DNA from: Candidatus Omnitrophota bacterium
GTDB taxonomy: Bacteria > Omnitrophota > Gorgyraeia > Gygaellales > JAHJCI01
Assembly (NCBI GenBank): GCA_043812035.1
Contig: JBDRMR010000072.1
Location: 1 to 58,357 of the forward strand
DNA length: 58,357 nt
Reading direction: 5' to 3'
Position numbers and translations under genes: made by a program. The notes beneath the pieces are model-generated. The model worked only from the letters and a program-made list of their open reading frames with translations. It was not told where the DNA came from and searched no databases. Within the stretch, counting starts at the first letter, position 1. Each line of letters opens with the position of its first letter. This document shows, piece by piece, positions 14,878 to 56,949 of the stretch.

Positions 14878-15080
14878 GAAAAATCGCTTTCGCGAAGCTT
14901 CTGGCGATTTTTCTTGATCCTGAGGCCGATAGGACGAGATTCTTCGCGAAGTTTACCCTAGAGCGAAGCGAAGGGCTCAGAATCGTCATCGAGTCCTGAA
15001 CGACCCTTCGGCAGGCTCAGGGTCGTCCTGAGCGAAGCGAAGGACGAAGCGAAGGGCGAAGGATCTTCGGGGGGTCTGGC
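14878..15080. repeat. composite intergenic repeat block (AAATCGC hairpin plus GCGAAGG-word element)
   Basis: gaaaaatcgc...gcgatttttc hairpin at 14879-14914. acgagattcttc...tcctgagcgaagcgaaggacgaagcgaagg at 14935-15054 is shared with 48802-48876. Confidence 0.8.
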
Positions 15081-22698: not shown

Positions 22699-22744
22699 CT
22701 TTTTTAGTGTTTAGCGTATAGGAAATACTAAACGCTATGCGCTC
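22699..22744. repeat. TAGCGTA/AAACGCT word hairpin in the yajC-secDF spacer
   Basis: gtgtttagcgtataggaaatactaaacgctatgcgc. Same word family as 1586-1705 and 32854-32892. Confidence 0.6.
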
Positions 22745-23026: not shown

Positions 23027-23120
23027 CTCCCTTCTTCAATGAGCCCACAACTTACGGAGTCCAAAGGACGACGTAAGTTGTTTGGGCGAATTGAACCCTT
23101 GACATCGTAGATGTCAAGGG
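23027..23120 (-). promoter_or_regulatory. leader cassette copy A (rearranged): TTGACA hairpin, then P1/P3 long hairpin, then the SD of yajC
   Basis: Minus-sense CCCTTGACATCTACGATGTCAAGGG, TTCAAT-TC-GCCC-AA-ACAACTTACG-TC-GTCC-TTT-GGAC-TC-CGTAAGTTGT-GGGC-TC-ATTGAA, then GAAGGGAG. Homologous to copies B-D. Confidence 0.75.
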
Positions 23121-23125
23121 TAAAC

Positions 23126-23404
23126 TCAGCCAGACGACTTAGCTTCACTCTCGTTCGCTAAGTCGTGGCTTCGTTTAACCAAACCGCTTACGGTTTCGGA
23201 CATCTGAGCGCCGCAGGACAGCCAGTAATTAAGTCTTTGCGTGTTTATCTTAATTACCGCCGGCTCTTTGGTGGGGTCGTAATAGCCCAACTCTTCGATA
23301 GAACGGCTGTCTCGCGACTTTCTTTTGTCAAAAACGCTGATGCGGAAAAAGTATCTCTTTTTAGAGCTTTTGCCTATCTTTCTTAATCTTATACGCACTG
23401 ACAT
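23126..23404 (-). CDS. rpsP: 30S ribosomal protein S16
   Basis: 92 aa. MSVRIRLRKIGKSSKKRYFFRISVFDKRKSRDSRSIEELGYYDP. The last ~14 codons coincide with hairpin module Y (23129-23168). Confidence 0.95.
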   Translation of the reverse strand: MSVRIRLRKIGKSSKKRYFFRISVFDKRKSRDSRSIEELGYYDPTKEPAVIKINTQRLNYWLSCGAQMSETVSGLVKRSHDLANESEAKSSG

Positions 23405-32853: not shown

Positions 32854-32892
32854 TATACGCTATCTATACGCTATACGCTAAACGCTATACGC
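32854..32892. repeat. TATACGC word array at the folP 3' end
   Basis: tatacgctatctatacgctatacgctaaacgctatacgc. The last 4 folP codons and the stop lie inside it. Confidence 0.8.
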
Positions 32893-34053
32893 TTTTCTTA
32901 TTGCGTCGGCAATCTTTACCGCCTGCGCCGCAAATTTAACGTCATGAACCCTGACGATGCTAGCACCGTTCATCACGGCTATCGCAAGCGTTGCCAACGT
33001 TCCGCTTAACCTTTGCTGAGGTGGAAGATTTAAGAGCTTGCCGATGAACGATTTTCGCGAAGGCCCTACAAGAACCGGGCAACCCAGCACCTTCAGCTCT
33101 TTCAGACTGTTCAGAATCTCTAAGTTATGTTCTACGGTCTTGCCGAACCCGATCCCCGGATCCACGATGATTCTTTTCTTGTCTATTCCTGAATCCTGCG
33201 CCCTTTTTATCGCCGCAGCCAGGTACCCGATTATCTCGCCCATCAAAAATTCGTATCGCGGATTCTTCTGCATGCTCCTAGGCGTGCCTTTCATGTGCAT
33301 AACGATAACCCGCGCCCTGCTTTTGGCTAATACCTCAATCATGCGGCGATTTCTCAAGCCGGTAATATCGTTCACAATCGAAGCTCCCGAATCCAAAGCC
33401 TGTCTGGCAACTTCCGGCTTATACGTATCTACGGAAATAGGGACTTTAATTATTTTAGATAGTTTTTTTATGACCGGGGCCGTTCTCTTAATTTCTTCTT
33501 TTTCCGATACCGGCAAAGCGCTCGGCCGGCTTGATTCCCCTCCTATATCGATGATGTCCGCGCCTTGAGAAACCAGTTCCCGGGCATAATCAATTATCTG
33601 CCCGATGCTCGCGCCCCTTGTCAGCAAGCCGTCCCCGCTAAACGAGTCGGGCGTAAGATTTACGATACCCATTATCCGCGTTCTGGCGCTTTCCGGCAAT
33701 TGATAATTTTTTAACACCGAGGAGATTCTTCCGCAGAGCCCCTGCAGACCCCGGACTTGCGGCTGCTCGTCAAGCTTGTCCAACAGCCGCTCATACTGGC
33801 TGAGCGTGCCCATAACAAGACAATCGGTTAACCGGGATTTTCCGTTAAGCGTGCCCCGGCTTAAACAAACTTCCCCCCCGATAGAAAGCATCTCCTGTTT
33901 TAAGATGTTTGCGCTGAAGCAATCCAGGTTATTCAGTCTAATCAGGCGCAATATACCTTTCGGAGCCATTATTTCTATTCCCCGCTTATCCGCGCCGATC
34001 TTCCTCATTATCTTCTGAATCTGCTCAATGTCGTCGGTATTGATAATCCGCAT
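32878..34053 (-). CDS. folP: dihydropteroate synthase with ~120 aa N-terminal extension
   Basis: 391 aa. Core IMGIVNLTPDSFSGDG, DIGGESSRP. The N-terminal domain is of unknown function. Confidence 0.85.
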   Translation of the reverse strand: MRIINTDDIEQIQKIMRKIGADKRGIEIMAPKGILRLIRLNNLDCFSANILKQEMLSIGGEVCLSRGTLNGKSRLTDCLVMGTLSQYERLLDKLDEQPQVRGLQGLCGRISSVLKNYQLPESARTRIMGIVNLTPDSFSGDGLLTRGASIGQIIDYARELVSQGADIIDIGGESSRPSALPVSEKEEIKRTAPVIKKLSKIIKVPISVDTYKPEVARQALDSGASIVNDITGLRNRRMIEVLAKSRARVIVMHMKGTPRSMQKNPRYEFLMGEIIGYLAAAIKRAQDSGIDKKRIIVDPGIGFGKTVEHNLEILNSLKELKVLGCPVLVGPSRKSFIGKLLNLPPQQRLSGTLATLAIAVMNGASIVRVHDVKFAAQAVKIADAIRKAYSV

Positions 34054-48776: not shown

Positions 48777-48801
48777 TTTAAATGAGCACGCAACTTATGG
48801 A

Positions 48802-48922
48802 ACGAGATTCTTCACTTTGTCCTTCGTCACTTCGTTCCTCAGGACAATCCTGAGCGAAGCGAAGGACGAAGCGAAGGACGAAGCGAAGGGTCTCTCTCAC
48901 CTCCGTTGGAGGTGAGACCTCC
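48802..48922. repeat. GCGAAGG-word element (second copy, one extra 12-nt unit) plus a 10-bp hairpin
   Basis: acgagattcttc...tcctgagcgaagcgaaggacgaagcgaagg(acgaagcgaagg)g, then tctcacctcc-gttg-gaggtgaga. Confidence 0.85.
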
Positions 48923-52250: not shown

Positions 52251-52426
52251 TGTTTTCTCACCTCCTTCAATGAGCAGGCGATTTATGGAGCACGCAGTGC
52301 GACATAAATCGTAGGCATTGACATCTTTGATGTCAATGCCGCCTGCGAATTGAACCCAGCACTTATTTGCTGATTTAAGATACGGTTCAAATAAGTGCTG
52401 GACCAAATTCAGCCACGGCCTTCGGC
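52251..52426 (-). promoter_or_regulatory. leader cassette copy B (core 52261-52354) with upstream 14-bp hairpin X (52355-52401)
   Basis: Minus-sense TTCAAT-TC-GCAGG...GGCATTGACATC-AAA-GATGTCAATGCC...CGATTTATG-TC-GCAC-TGC-GTGC-TC-CATAAATCG-CCTGC-TC-ATTGAA-GGAGG. TTGACA, 17 nt, TACGAT is embedded. Confidence 0.8.
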
Positions 52427-52873
52427 CTATTTAGAAAGCCCTTTTTCCAGTTGGCCCAGGAAAAAGAGGATCGCTATCGCCAGAACAGCGGTGACTAAAC
52501 TGGCCAGGTAAAAACCGCAGCCTATGCCCATACCGATTCCCGCAACGAGCCAGAGACTGGCAGCTGTTGTTAAGCCTCTTACCGCTTCTCCTGAACGGAT
52601 TATTGCGCCTGCGCCGAGAAAACCGATTCCGGTAATTATCCCGGCGGCGATTCGTGCGGGGTCTAAAGTAGCTACGTCCTTATATATATCAAAAACATAT
52701 TGAGATGTCAACATTATAAGGCAGGAACCTAATGACACCAGGATATGCGTGCGCAAGCCGGCACTGCGTTTCTTAACCTCCCGCTCAAAGCCAATTAACC
52801 CGCCTAAGATTATCGCTAAAATCAAACGCCCAAAAATAGCCAAAGGAGCAATCATCTTCTCCACCTCCTTCAA
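52427..52873 (-). CDS. MgtC/SapB family membrane protein
   Basis: 148 aa. GFEREVKKRSAGLRTHILV, 4-5 TM helices. Confidence 0.85.
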   Translation of the reverse strand: MKEVEKMIAPLAIFGRLILAIILGGLIGFEREVKKRSAGLRTHILVSLGSCLIMLTSQYVFDIYKDVATLDPARIAAGIITGIGFLGAGAIIRSGEAVRGLTTAASLWLVAGIGMGIGCGFYLASLVTAVLAIAILFFLGQLEKGLSK

Positions 52874-52954
52874 TGAGCAGATAACTTATGGAGCGTAAGC
52901 GACATAAGTTATAGGCATTGACATCGTAGATGTCAATGCCGTCTGCGAATTGAA
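52864..52954 (-). promoter_or_regulatory. leader cassette copy C (91 nt, identical to copy D)
   Basis: Minus-sense TTCAAT-TC-GCAGA-C-GGCATTGACATC-TAC-GATGTCAATGCC-T-ATAACTTATG-TC-GC-TTAC-GC-TC-CATAAGTTAT-CTGC-TC-ATTGAA-GGAGG. TTGACA (52936-52931), 17 nt, TATAAC (52913-52908). Confidence 0.85.
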
Positions 52955-53934
52955 TATCCCAAACCCGCAACCATTGCCGCATTGTCGGTGCAAAATTCTT
53001 TCGGAGAAAAATAAACCCTTAAACGGTTAATACCCGCCTCATTCCCGAATTTCTCTCTGAGGCGACTATTTGCCGCAACGCCTCCCCCCACAACCAATTG
53101 GTCCGTCTTGTTTAACCTGCAAGCTAAAACGGATTTCCTGACGAGCGCATCAATGACTGCTTCCTGAAAAGAGGCAGCCACGTCTCGAATAACGGGCAGC
53201 GGGCAGCGGGAAGCGGAGAACGGAGAATGCTTCCCGCGCCCCGTATCGCGTTTCCCGCCACCCGTTCCCCGAACATAATACAACACTGCCGTCTTTATCC
53301 CGCTAAAACTGAAGTCCAAAGGACGCTGGGTATTGCTGCATCTGAACTTTATACTCGCGGGATTTCCTTTTTTTGCAAACTTCTCAATAACCGGGCCGCC
53401 GGGAAAACTTAATCCTAAAATGCCGGCAACCTTGTCATATGCCTCTCCGCAGGCATCGTCCCGGGTCGAACCGAGGGGCTTGATTTTAGAGAATCTCTCA
53501 ACGTAAAACAAACTCGTATGCCCTCCGGAAACTACCAGGCCGACAAAAGGAAAACGGGGTTTTTCTTTGTTGAAAAAGGCGGAATAGAGATGGGCGTGCA
53601 GGTGATTTATCTTAACCAAGGGTAAATCCCGCGCGAAGCTCAAAGCCCTGGCGAAACAAATACCGACAAGCAAAGAGCCGTGCAAACCGGGTTGCTCTGT
53701 TACCGCAATCAGCTTTATATTATTTAACTTTGTTCCAGCCTGCTCTAAACTGTCGGCAAAGACGGCGCTTATCGTTTCCGAATGCCTGCGAGAGGCTATT
53801 TCCGGGACTATGCCTCTGTAGCGCCTGTGAAAATTCAAGCTTGATGAAACAATGTTAGAATAAACCTTTTGACCGTTCTCAACTACGGAGACCGCCGTCT
53901 CGTCGCATGAAGTCTCTATGCCTAACACCAACAT
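52933..53934 (-). CDS. tsaD: tRNA N6-adenosine threonylcarbamoyltransferase
   Basis: 333 aa. MLVLGIETSCDETAVSVV, VVSGGHTSL, VVGGGVAANS. Its stop TGA lies inside the TTGACA of cassette C. Confidence 0.9.
   Translation of the reverse strand: MLVLGIETSCDETAVSVVENGQKVYSNIVSSSLNFHRRYRGIVPEIASRRHSETISAVFADSLEQAGTKLNNIKLIAVTEQPGLHGSLLVGICFARALSFARDLPLVKINHLHAHLYSAFFNKEKPRFPFVGLVVSGGHTSLFYVERFSKIKPLGSTRDDACGEAYDKVAGILGLSFPGGPVIEKFAKKGNPASIKFRCSNTQRPLDFSFSGIKTAVLYYVRGTGGGKRDTGRGKHSPFSASRCPLPVIRDVAASFQEAVIDALVRKSVLACRLNKTDQLVVGGGVAANSRLREKFGNEAGINRLRVYFSPKEFCTDNAAMVAGLGYSIRRRH
53191..53267. repeat. imperfect GC-rich hairpin (CGGGCAG/CGGAGAA words) inside tsaD
   Basis: gggaagc...gcttccc 7-bp core. Outer aacgggcagcggg / cccgccacccgtt arms have two C-A mismatches on the plus strand, which are G-U pairs in mRNA sense. 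Encodes GTGGGKRDTGRGKHSPFSASRCPLPV. Confidence 0.7.
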
Positions 53935-55211: not shown

Positions 55212-55395
55212 AACCGTTTCCTCCTTCAATGAGCAGATAACTTATGGAGCGTAAGCGACATAAGTTATAGGCATTGACATCGTAGATGTCAATGCCGTCT
55301 GCGAATTGAACCCTTGACATTTTGTTACTACAAAATGTCAAGGGTCAAATTCAGACATAGAACTTAGCTTCGCTATCGCTCGCTAAGTTCTGTCT
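55212..55395 (-). promoter_or_regulatory. leader cassette copy D: core 55220-55310, hairpin X 55311-55344, hairpin Y 55354-55394
   Basis: The core is 100% identical to 52864-52954. X is CCCTTGACATTTTG-TAGTAAC-CAAAATGTCAAGGG. Y is GACAGAACTTAGC-GAGCGATAGCGAA-GCTAAGTTCTATGTC and starts 1 nt after the gatB stop. Confidence 0.85.
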
Positions 55396-56820
55396 TCATT
55401 TGATTAATCTCTTCTTCAATATCTCCAATACCGCCTTGGGATTAGCCTTGCCTTTGGACTTTCGCATAACCTGACCGACTAAATACTGAACGGCGTTCTC
55501 TTTGCCGCCTAAATAATCGTTAGCCGAATCCGGGTTTTCCCGTATGGACTCTTCTATAATTTTATCCAGGGCTTCTCCGGCGGAAATCTGGATTAAATTC
55601 TTCCTCTCGACAATTATCTCAGGAGCCTCGCCGGTTTCGATCATCTCGGTTAAAACACCCTTGGCTGCGATATTGGAAATCTTGCCCTCCCTGGATAACT
55701 TAATCAGGCTTGATAGATTCTCCGGCATAAGGTTCAAATCGGCAATGCTCAGTTTGCGGTTATTTAGTTCGGAAAGCAAAGGGCCGCTAATCCAGTTGAC
55801 AATCATTTTTGCCTCAGGATAAAATTTAAAACAATCTTCGAAAAATTCGGCAAGCTCTTTCTCCGAAGTTAAAATACGCGTATCGTATTCCGAAAGCCGG
55901 TAATCCCGCATAAAACGCTCCTCTTTTTGCCGGGGTAATTCAGGCAAGGACTTTTCTATCTCCTGTCGCATCCTTGAATCGATAACAAAAGGAGGCAGGT
56001 CCGGCTCGGGGAAATAGCGATAATCCTGGGCTTCCTCCTTTGTGCGCATTGGGCAAGTTCTTTGGCCCTGGACATCCCACAATCGCGTTTCCTGAATTAC
56101 CTTGCCCCCGCTCTGCAGTAATTTTGTCTGACGTTTTAATTCAAATTCCAGAGCGTCGCGAACCCCCCTAAAAGAATTCATATTCTTCAACTCTGTCTTG
56201 ATCCCTAAAACAAGTTCGTCTTTTTTCTTAACTGATATATTGGCATCGCACCTCAAAATTCCCTTTTCCATATCGCAACTTGAAATCCCCAGATACCGGA
56301 TGGTTTGTTTTAAGGTTACTAAATACTCGTAAGCCTCCTGCGGCGAATTAATGTCCGGACAGCTCACTATCTCAAGGAGCGGTATGCCGGTCCGGTTAAA
56401 ATCAACTAAACTTACGTCTTCTTCATGAATCAATTTCCCCGCGTCCTCTTCCAGATGCACCCGTTTAATGCCGATACGCTTCTGTCCGCCGTTTAAGCCC
56501 ATGTTCAAAAACCCGTCCTGGCCTATAGGTAAATCGTACTGGGAAATCTGATAATTCTTTGGTAAATCTGGATAAAAATAGTTCTTGCGGTCGAATTTAG
56601 TGAATTCGGCAACCCGGCAGTTCAGCGCAATCGCCACTTTTACGGCGTATTCAAAAGCCTTTTGGTTAAACACCGGCAGACACCCCGGCAGGCCCAAACA
56701 AACCGGGCAAACCTGAGAATTCGGCTGGCTGCCGAATTCGGTCGAGCATCCGCAAAATATCTTGGTGTCTGTTTTTAGCTGAACGTGAACCTCTAATCCG
56801 ATTACTGCCTCATATTCCAT
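55396..56820 (-). CDS. gatB: Asp/Glu-tRNA amidotransferase subunit B
   Basis: 474 aa. MEYEAVIGLEVHVQLKTDTKIFC. Confidence 0.97.
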   Translation of the reverse strand: MEYEAVIGLEVHVQLKTDTKIFCGCSTEFGSQPNSQVCPVCLGLPGCLPVFNQKAFEYAVKVAIALNCRVAEFTKFDRKNYFYPDLPKNYQISQYDLPIGQDGFLNMGLNGGQKRIGIKRVHLEEDAGKLIHEEDVSLVDFNRTGIPLLEIVSCPDINSPQEAYEYLVTLKQTIRYLGISSCDMEKGILRCDANISVKKKDELVLGIKTELKNMNSFRGVRDALEFELKRQTKLLQSGGKVIQETRLWDVQGQRTCPMRTKEEAQDYRYFPEPDLPPFVIDSRMRQEIEKSLPELPRQKEERFMRDYRLSEYDTRILTSEKELAEFFEDCFKFYPEAKMIVNWISGPLLSELNNRKLSIADLNLMPENLSSLIKLSREGKISNIAAKGVLTEMIETGEAPEIIVERKNLIQISAGEALDKIIEESIRENPDSANDYLGGKENAVQYLVGQVMRKSKGKANPKAVLEILKKRLIK

Positions 56821-56949
56821 AATTATTATAGTCTCAGTTACTGGCGGTTACTGTTAGTTACTGACGGTTACTTTTTTGTAACCGACAATAACCATTAGTA
56901 ACAAACTGTCGTTTTGCTTGGATTCAGTAACTATCAGTAACTATAAAAA
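56821..56949. repeat. 129-nt gatA-gatB spacer made of GTTACTG/GTAAC words (long imperfect hairpin)
   Basis: cagttactggcggttactgttagttactgacggttac-ttttttg-taaccgacaataaccattagtaacaaactg, followed by cagtaactatcagtaactat. Shares ttttttgtaacc with the hisI tail region. Confidence 0.8.

Follow-up and report, generated by a model that had tools for sequence, protein, structure and literature searches.

What is a 91-nt sequence, identical in every letter, doing directly in front of two unrelated genes? The question arises from a 58,357-nt stretch of DNA from a Candidatus Omnitrophota bacterium (contig JBDRMR010000072.1 of assembly GCA_043812035.1), the whole of which we call the window. An earlier reading of its letters, which we refer to as the original prediction, described the repeat upstream of ctpA and of an MgtC-like gene as a structured cassette that includes a ribosome-binding site. 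We find that the repeat is probably one module (Z) of small, mobile DNA palindromes that form a mosaic family specific to Candidatus Omnitrophota and tied to genes of the GIY-YIG nuclease type. Two further modules, an inverted hairpin (X) and a linking palindrome (Y), accompany Z at many sites.

Copies of the repeat in the window

Direct comparison of positions 55220-55310 with 52864-52954 reproduced the identity of the two copies (100% over 91 nt). The genes here lie on the minus strand, and in mRNA sense both copies read TTCAAT-TC-GCAGA-C-(GGCATTGACATC-TAC-GATGTCAATGCC)-T-(ATAACTTATG-TC-GC-TTAC-GC-TC-CATAAGTTAT)-CTGC-TC-ATTGAA-GGAGG, with the ATG 8 nt past GGAGG. The pattern of the 12-bp hairpin occurs three times in the window and not at all in shuffles. 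The cassette itself is present four times, as had been predicted, the fourth copy being found by nhmmer as well as by a covariance model that we made from 15 minimal Z copies. All four have the mRNA sense, and an ATG follows 6-10 nt downstream of each. Beyond them, the window contains two inverted, diverged copies and one degenerate 3' half. The Z copies and their immediate surroundings, including a Shine-Dalgarno (SD) sequence and one open reading frame (ORF), are as follows.

55225..55310, minus strand: Z copy 1, 86 nt, TTCAAT..ATTGAA, with two TC/TC internal loops and a nested palindrome
55220..55224, minus strand: GGAGG ribosome-binding site of ctpA, part of the target site and evidently outside the mobile unit; relatives without the element have GGGAGGG there
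52869..52954, minus strand: Z copy 2, solo (no X, no Y), identical to copy 1; empty sites in the relatives' contigs L116-L119
52266..52354, minus strand: Z copy 3, diverged with compensatory changes, upstream of a bactofilin/helix-turn-helix gene
23035..23095, minus strand: Z copy 4, minimal two-way form, upstream of yajC; nhmmer E 2.7e-11, covariance model 91 bits
48777..48806, minus strand: degenerate 3' half of Z, CCATAAGTTGCGTGCTCATTTAAA, abutting the ATG of a 642-aa ORF, no SD

Copy 3 is distinguished from copies 1 and 2 by a 3-nt loop indel and by compensatory changes in both stems, GCAGA/TCTGC having become GCAGG/CCTGC and ATAACTTATG/CATAAGTTAT having become ACGATTTATG/CATAAATCG. The 'GCTCATTTAAAATG' variant of the degenerate half at 48777-48806 recurs in other genomes. 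The three-way junction of the original prediction does not apply to copy 4, which is a two-way hairpin whose TTGACA hairpin lies outside, 5' of the closing helix and its TTCAAT.

Orthologous sites without the element

The gene orders gatB-ctpA-tsaD-mgtC-bactofilin and trpE-rpsP-yajC-secDF are retained in relatives that we identified by way of TsaD (78-83% identity) and of SecDF (73-87% identity). Since these relatives lack the element at gatB/ctpA, tsaD/mgtC and rpsP/yajC in the same gene order, the window copies at these three junctions are insertions.

gatB/ctpA junction: relatives, 27-nt spacer ...AGATTAA-gaaaggatTAAaaacaatattagtg-GGAGGG...; window, X-Y-Z between AGATTAA and GGAGG
tsaD/mgtC junction: relatives, overlapping genes ...GGGATAT-cggttatttg-GGAGGTGGAAAGGATGATT; window, ...GGGATAT-(Z)-GGAGGTGGAGAAGATGATT
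rpsP/yajC junction: closest relative, ...AATAAG-GAAGGGAGTTAATTATG; window, (X-Y-Z)-GAAGGGAGTTGATTATG

At all three junctions ATTGAA is the exact end of the element, and the SD is the native one. Thus, the 91-nt identity is made up of an 86-nt mobile hairpin and a 5-nt SD that was already present at both targets: the repeat proper is evidently the hairpin Z, foot to foot, and the extra GGAGG belongs to the target gene as its ribosome-binding site. The ribosome-binding site, which had been counted as part of the repeat, accordingly drops out of it, as the orthologous empty sites carry a native SD. Native bases were replaced at the three filled sites (10, about 25 and 52 nt relative to the empty ones). 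The course of events would have been the insertion of X-Y-Z at gatB/ctpA and rpsP/yajC and that of a solo Z, identical to the gatB/ctpA copy, into a formerly overlapping tsaD/mgtC pair, with each insertion replacing 10-52 nt and keeping the native SD. Copy 2 now provides the last six codons and the stop codon (52933-52935) of tsaD, which thus ends within it, and the TsaD C-terminus reads SIRRRH* in the window versus RLFGRWKG* in relatives. At the level of aligned sequence, these comparisons show that the elements moved recently in this lineage. The covariance model had no match in about 50 kb from the closest relatives. A more distant relative (L127) has an X-Z pair at a different junction, and at mgtC/bactofilin relatives carry a different cassette. 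On one relative's contig (L116, positions 221-475), a small gene for a '23S rRNA intervening sequence protein' (PF05635) occupies a place just upstream of gatB that in the window belongs to gatA; genes of this family, too, are often seen as multi-copy insertions.

A mosaic of hairpin modules

Across the family, the Z unit takes the form TTCAAT-TC-GC...GC-TC-ATTGAA, is 61-90 nt long, contains two invariant TC/TC mismatch loops about 15-16 bp apart, and terminates exactly at the 5' edge of the next gene's SD. X is the same kind of hairpin in inverted orientation and covers the stop codon upstream; with its end, T(C)AAATGA, it gives the upstream gene its stop codons, TAA and TGA being offered in two frames. 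Y is a palindrome with 13-16-nt arms that lies between X and Z, begins with CCC and finishes with GGG. In the window, the covariance model also matched the opposite strand at 55342-55408 and 23117-23183, which are inverted, diverged X hairpins over the gatB and rpsP stops. The modules that accompany the Z copies are these.

55345..55403, plus strand: X, inverted diverged copy, E 3.4e-9, with GA/GA loops in mRNA sense; contains the gatB stop codon (55396-55398)
55311..55344, unstranded: Y palindrome of the TTGACA class, CCCTTGACATTTTG / CAAAATGTCAAGGG with a 6-nt loop; arms match the full-length elements L082 and L039; apparently an ORF-less miniature of a GIY-YIG element
55270..55296, unstranded: nested palindrome, GGCATTGACATC-NNN-GATGTCAATGCC, in the Z bulge; also at 52914-52940 and 52314-52340
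52355..52402, unstranded: Y palindrome of the AGCACT class, TCCAGCACTTATTTG / CAAATAAGTGCTGG; arms match the GIY-YIG element L129
52403..52433, plus strand: truncated remnant of X, seen by direct reading of the letters, over the stop codon (52427-52429) of mgtC
23096..23120, unstranded: Y mini-palindrome, CCCTTGACATC-TAC-GATGTCAAGGG
23121..23178, plus strand: X, inverted copy, E 5.5e-6; supplies rpsP with its C-terminal tail and stop codon (23126-23128)

At the position of the last of these, relatives carry other C-terminal tails of rpsP. The nested palindrome, 'hairpin 1' of the original prediction, can be read as a small palindrome lodged in the Z bulge. It has a 19-nt core (TTGACATCTACGATGTCAA) in common with the Y palindrome at 23096-23120, and other Z copies have different inserts, or none, at the bulge position. 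Module recombination is seen in one nested palindrome that occurs with differing distal stems, and a metagenome scan with the nested-palindrome core, which returned 4 contigs only and no large set of flanks, likewise made module shuffling visible. At any one locus the stems of X and Z are unrelated, which led us to reject the idea that the two pair into a single long hairpin. In a sub-family of Z (L020, L042, L049, L053, L058, L094, L098, L107 and L115), the bulge contains a conserved purine-rich insert resembling GTTCAAAGAAGAAATTCATAGAAGAT, and the distal hairpin has no TC/TC loop.

The mosaic bears directly on the suggestion that the cassette is a portable promoter with a 5' untranslated region, in which TTGACA-17-TATAAC or TACGAT would drive the downstream gene. 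The hexamers are indeed present in copies 1-3, and a promoter scan lists copy 3, with TTGACA-17-TACGAT (10/12), as the only hit among them; the -10 hexamer of copies 1 and 2 ends in C and fails the rule of the scan. However, TTGACA is part of the optional nested palindrome, so that the TTGACA-17-TATAAC match is confined to copies that have this insert and is absent from most family members. A transcript starting there would miss the 5' half of the structure, and inspection across loci revealed no consistent -35/-10 pair upstream of Z. We consider a promoter cassette very improbable.

Distribution and position relative to genes

To describe the spread of Z, we ran the exact-end pattern TTCAATTCGC-N40-70-GCTCATTGAAG on a collection of species-representative genomes, where it matched at least 115 stretches. 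About 98 of the matches listed are structured and come from 59 assemblies, nearly all of them Candidatus Omnitrophota/Omnitrophica, together with some loosely labelled bins; the other approximately 17 listed are unstructured chance matches from other phyla. Z is present in at least 59 Omnitrophota species genomes, with up to 7 copies per genome among the matches listed. No copy was found in the viral contigs searched. The position of the structured copies listed is highly regular: a start codon with its ORF follows 3-16 nt after Z (mode 8-10) in 94 of 98, the next four bases are GAGG in 52 of 98, the upstream gene is co-directional in 79 of 98, and GGG or GGA directly precedes Z in 96 of 98. 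A Y palindrome abuts Z in 73 of 92 copies, and the complete X-Y-Z arrangement is found in 44 of 92. When run over 697 kb of loci, the covariance model gave 191 non-overlapping matches, of which 111 are Z before start codons and 51 are inverted X, with an opposite-strand gene ending in or near them, in most cases at T(C)AAATGA. Among the remaining matches are Z variants that have an ATG directly after the helix and no SD. Instead of being scattered irrespective of start codons with no covariation, which would have counted against the original prediction, the copies are tied to start codons and covary strongly. The prediction is thus supported in that the cassette is discrete, portable and structured and sits where unrelated co-directional genes meet.

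The genes that follow Z have little in common. The 93 downstream proteins match 136 Pfam families, none of which is represented by more than two proteins. Searches of Rfam at gathering and at permissive thresholds gave two tRNAs and noise only, and no family matches the repeat, in agreement with the original prediction. These results weigh on the idea of a gene-specific leader, either riboswitch-like or protein-binding, and on that of an integron attC site, both of which would account for a three-way-junction shape beside the SD between unrelated co-directional genes. For a leader, conservation would not be expected to lie, as it does, in the helix ends and not in the junction or loop nucleotides, nor one arm of the junction to be optional; the downstream genes are unrelated, no Rfam family is matched, and the same genes occur in relatives without the element, so that the earlier suggestion of a gene-specific cis-regulatory RNA is not borne out. 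An attC site would have RYYYAAC/GTTRRRY cores, which are lacking, and the flanking genes are housekeeping genes in conserved synteny. Either identity is hardly credible. Likenesses to boxA/NusB, a tRNA-like T-arm, attC and a promoter of a single-subunit RNA polymerase were dropped, since the sequences do not fit on inspection. The full-text literature, mostly outside subscription journals, that we searched for Omnitrophota RNA motifs, palindromes or MITEs (miniature transposable elements with inverted repeats), and for GIY-YIG with inverted repeats or a transposase, contained no description of these elements.

Folding and covariation

The four Z copies of the window fold far better than shuffles (z -5.5 to -6.0), and the whole gatB-ctpA spacer reaches z -10.5. 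Covariation over the loci is very strong. In an alignment of 122 distinct sequences, itself fitted to the covariance model, paired cells make up 96.1%, and for 23 of 24 pairs both sides have changed; 0 of 500 shuffles reach any of the observed covariation measures, and pairing in slid controls is 32-41%. Read in the element's own orientation, the TC/TC loops do not vary, either in Z or in X. As the halves are not mirror images, it is the folded hairpin that is conserved, not a dimer site on duplex DNA. The two main Z helices comprise 1550 Watson-Crick, 22 G.U, 15 A.C and 21 other cells (1608 in total). The pairing is almost purely Watson-Crick with no excess of G.U, and there is no strand asymmetry of the kind that RNA helices show.

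This composition is relevant to the strongest of the rival explanations, in which X, Y and Z form an RNA module that benefits the host by punctuating operons. X and Y would be stabilising or terminating hairpins at 3' ends, Z would be a 5' hairpin that insulates and presents the ribosome-binding site, or else a processing site for an RNase III-type enzyme or a dedicated RNA-binding protein, and mobility would be secondary. Such a module would explain the strict, orientation-specific position at stop and start signals, the conservation of the end sequences and TC/TC loops in at least 59 species, and the stems that stay paired through many double changes. The hairpins are also very stable as RNA and, since one strand carries 54 of the 62 window genes, separated by short gaps, transcripts must cross the elements. 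On the other hand, the same junctions work in close relatives with 2-27-nt spacers or overlaps and no element, no gene family is enriched downstream, and G.U is no commoner than A.C in the helices, unlike in helices selected as RNA. Both orientations are used although their RNA loops differ (UC/UC versus GA/GA), and 100% identical copies occur along with nested and exchanged modules. We judge a host RNA module to be unlikely. A separate argument for RNA, based on UUCG tetraloops, was dropped, as inspection showed the loops to be C-UUC-G triloops and not canonical tetraloops.

The Y module and its nuclease gene

At several loci a small ORF occupies the 'loop' of Y, and full-length Y has a gene for a 77-115-aa, Slx1-like GIY-YIG nuclease between its arms. 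By hmmscan, all six ORFs tested belong to PF01541 (41.7-63.6 bits against a cut-off of 22.6) and contain no other domain. Their best matches among solved structures are 1zg2 and 1ywl (UPF0213; phmmer E 7.9e-10 and 2.2e-5), which Dunin-Horkawicz et al. class as the minimal bacterial Slx1-like form (PMC1564403). A hidden Markov model (HMM) made from four small Y ORFs recovered 11 ORFs in the fetched loci, which had been chosen for holding Z, and all 11 lie directly upstream of Z. Gene and palindrome are closely fitted to each other: the 5' arm of Y stops 2-8 nt before the ATG, the stop codon lies within the 3' arm (AAAAT-TAG-TGCTGGG), and the class of arm tracks the clade of the protein. Elements reached by protein similarity alone have the same arms at all three distinct insertion sites. 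The first is between ssb and rpsR, inside the rpsF-ssb-rpsR operon; the second combines X with a mini-Y, a full Y and a Z whose nested palindrome is of the window's type; the third has the arms and no Z.

Mini-Y copies in L007, L031 and L116 match the full-length element L059 over 35 nt at each end with 87-97% identity, lack the ORF, and are missing approximately 250 nt between these ends. The Y arms of the window likewise match the arms of full-length elements. Judged by their ends, the short Y palindromes, including all of those in the window, are internal-deletion (MITE-like) derivatives. Two observations on the full-length elements may be added. Many contigs in our list of small GIY-YIG genes are only 0.5-2 kb long, as expected if the elements break metagenome assemblies. 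In the JGI metagenome contigs L135-L137, a GIY-YIG element lies between giant ORFs (19,857-23,706 aa upstream, 2,989 aa downstream), and a mini-Y just ahead of the full Y is bordered by an 18-nt direct repeat, TCATAAGGCCGAATTTGA; this repeat could be a duplication that arose from insertion or from unequal recombination.

Comparison with known kinds of element

The original prediction had set the repeat apart from repetitive extragenic palindromic (REP) sequences and bacterial interspersed mosaic elements (BIMEs). Its behaviour, that of a mobile palindromic repeat forming mosaics with inverted partners, makes these its closest known kind. Like the RAYT-associated REP, BIME and REPIN elements of Proteobacteria, the family consists of multi-copy, extragenic, imperfect palindromes with complementary stems between co-directional genes of operons, and the orientation alternates around linker motifs, X and Z being inverted around Y in the complete units. 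In contrast to REPs, which are 20-40 nt long, the units here measure 61-90 nt, with the ends TTCAATTCGC / GCTCATTGAA and without a GTAG/CGTC tag. One orientation abuts the ribosome-binding site while the other covers the stop codon, Y, the linker, is a palindrome too and can hold a nuclease gene, the end sequences are common to the whole phylum, and no RAYT was found in a sparse sample of approximately 1 Mb.

Another rival explanation is a REP- or REPIN-type element whose transposase is a RAYT (Y1 HUH); the GIY-YIG gene would then either ride along as an unrelated passenger or be a homing gene directed at Y palindromes. This rival would fit the inverted hairpin pairs with a spacer, as in REPINs and BIMEs (PMC3116915; PMC2817692), and also the strict Watson-Crick pairing and asymmetric mismatches that are expected of single-stranded DNA hairpin substrates. 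It does not fit the missing tag and the length of the hairpins, and whereas the arms of a REPIN are copies of each other, X and Z of a given locus are not. A phmmer search with E. coli RayT found no homologue in 3720 ORF segments from the ~1 Mb of loci and the window, which counts weakly given the sparse sampling. We hold this explanation to be improbable.

With MITEs (for example Correia/NEMIS and ERIC), the family shares terminal inverted repeats in Y, an origin by internal deletion (for Y only), the formation of long hairpins when transcribed, and the ability to add codons and stop codons to neighbouring genes. Correia and ERIC elements undergo processing by RNase III or RNase E. Unlike in MITEs, the coding partner here is a GIY-YIG nuclease of about 80 aa, not a DDE or other known transposase, and 10-52 nt are replaced without a target-site duplication. 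Free-standing GIY-YIG homing genes, such as the seg genes of phage T4 and the relatives of I-TevI, have the same catalytic domain (PF01541) and are similarly wedged into conserved operons (here ssb/rpsR), with presence and absence varying between relatives. However, the Y proteins have the minimal Slx1/UPF0213-type domain only and no DNA-binding domain, their gene is bracketed by inverted repeats and hairpins, and ORF-less derivatives are abundant at many unrelated junctions, whereas classical homing yields none. As stand-alone minimal GIY-YIG domains related to 1zg2 and 1ywl, the Y proteins resemble the Slx1/UPF0213 (YhbQ-like) nucleases. The MIRUs of Mycobacterium are intercistronic tandem direct repeats with small ORFs, whose ends overlap flanking stop and start codons. 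They are alike in their location within operons, in their fixed orientation to genes and in having ends at translation stop and start signals, but MIRUs are not built as palindromic hairpins and are not known to come with a nuclease gene.

A possible mechanism and the evidence against it

We picture the family as MITE- or REP-like mobile palindromes that are possibly mobilised by the nuclease. The hairpins would be recognised when extruded or single-stranded, and an Slx1-like GIY-YIG nuclease made elsewhere in the genome would nick them in trans. Nicking would start copying by repair or template switching, with the junctions falling at the hairpin feet and at SD microhomology. The flush placement against stop codon and SD could then result either from recombination at SD microhomology or from the survival of only those insertions that end the upstream ORF and free the SD. 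When transcribed, the hairpins might act at most as generic intercistronic insulators or stabilisers.

Several results weigh against nuclease-driven mobile elements. None of the three comparisons of filled and empty sites shows a target-site duplication, and the replacement of bases without duplication suits recombination or template switching as well as it suits transposition. The HMM of small Y ORFs found no GIY-YIG gene in the window, so that mobilisation there would need action in trans from elsewhere in the genome. Z does not always lie beside Y, as L129 and L140 have the arms without a canonical Z, and the two may be independent elements that merely cluster. The loci drawn from genome contigs were chosen for holding Z, which biases the association of Z with GIY-YIG genes as well as densities such as the roughly one further element per 7-8 kb in fetched loci (selected for one copy). 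Lastly, the end sequences are conserved across genomes of very different G+C, and the spacing between hairpin and SD is zero in about 85% of copies. This conservation and spacing exceed the needs of a purely selfish element and fit a host function. With these points taken into account, a mosaic of mobile palindromes tied to GIY-YIG genes is still the reading that we think probable. Going further, X, Y, Z and the ~80-aa Slx1-like GIY-YIG nuclease might constitute an undescribed class of bacterial transposable element, in which a minimal structure-specific nuclease copies extruded hairpins or cruciforms into intercistronic gaps and into each other, and which is adapted to the operons of streamlined genomes. 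We offer this wider proposal tentatively and regard it as rather less likely to be right than wrong.

Other repeats in the window

The window contains a further class of repeat, distinct from X, Y and Z, in the form of palindromic spacers built from short tandem units (1587-1703, 2671-2740, 22699-22744, 32854-32893 and 56837-56944). Most are 7-nt arrays facing a complementary array (TTTAGCG x8.7 versus CTATACG x7.4; TAGTTTG versus ACTATGA), while the gatA/gatB spacer is composed of 10-nt GTTACTGACG / TCAGTAACTA units. Inside tsaD, positions 53193-53272 hold a heptamer array (CGGGCAG x3.4) and its complement, which together make a palindrome (DNA fold z -3.2). It encodes a Gly/Lys/Arg-rich stretch whose length and sequence vary among TsaD orthologues, and looks like an in-frame palindromic insertion. 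CGAAG-rich repeats (CGAAGCGAAGGA x2.4-2.9) lie beside a CTCAGG...CCTGAG hairpin at 15016-15061 and at 48838-48895, and the latter stands where the 5' half of the degenerate Z would be.

Significance for Omnitrophota genomes

A large part of the structured DNA between genes in this uncultured and poorly known phylum belongs to the family. Knowledge of it would prevent its hairpins from being misread as riboswitches, terminators or promoters, and the elements may explain breaks in assemblies, many of the nuclease genes being on contigs shorter than 2 kb. For the minimal stand-alone GIY-YIG proteins (UPF0213/Slx1-like), the link to inverted repeats and ORF-less derivatives provides a testable idea of their substrate, and the chance that the family is a new class of nuclease-driven element is a real one. 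If so, a multi-frame stop-codon trap at one end, and another end that is flush with the ribosome-binding site or targets it, would make insertion nearly harmless. The three comparisons of empty and filled sites indicate that an insertion can split overlapping, translationally coupled genes, re-supply the stop codon and spare the ribosome-binding site, a natural analogue of the hairpin insulators of synthetic operons.

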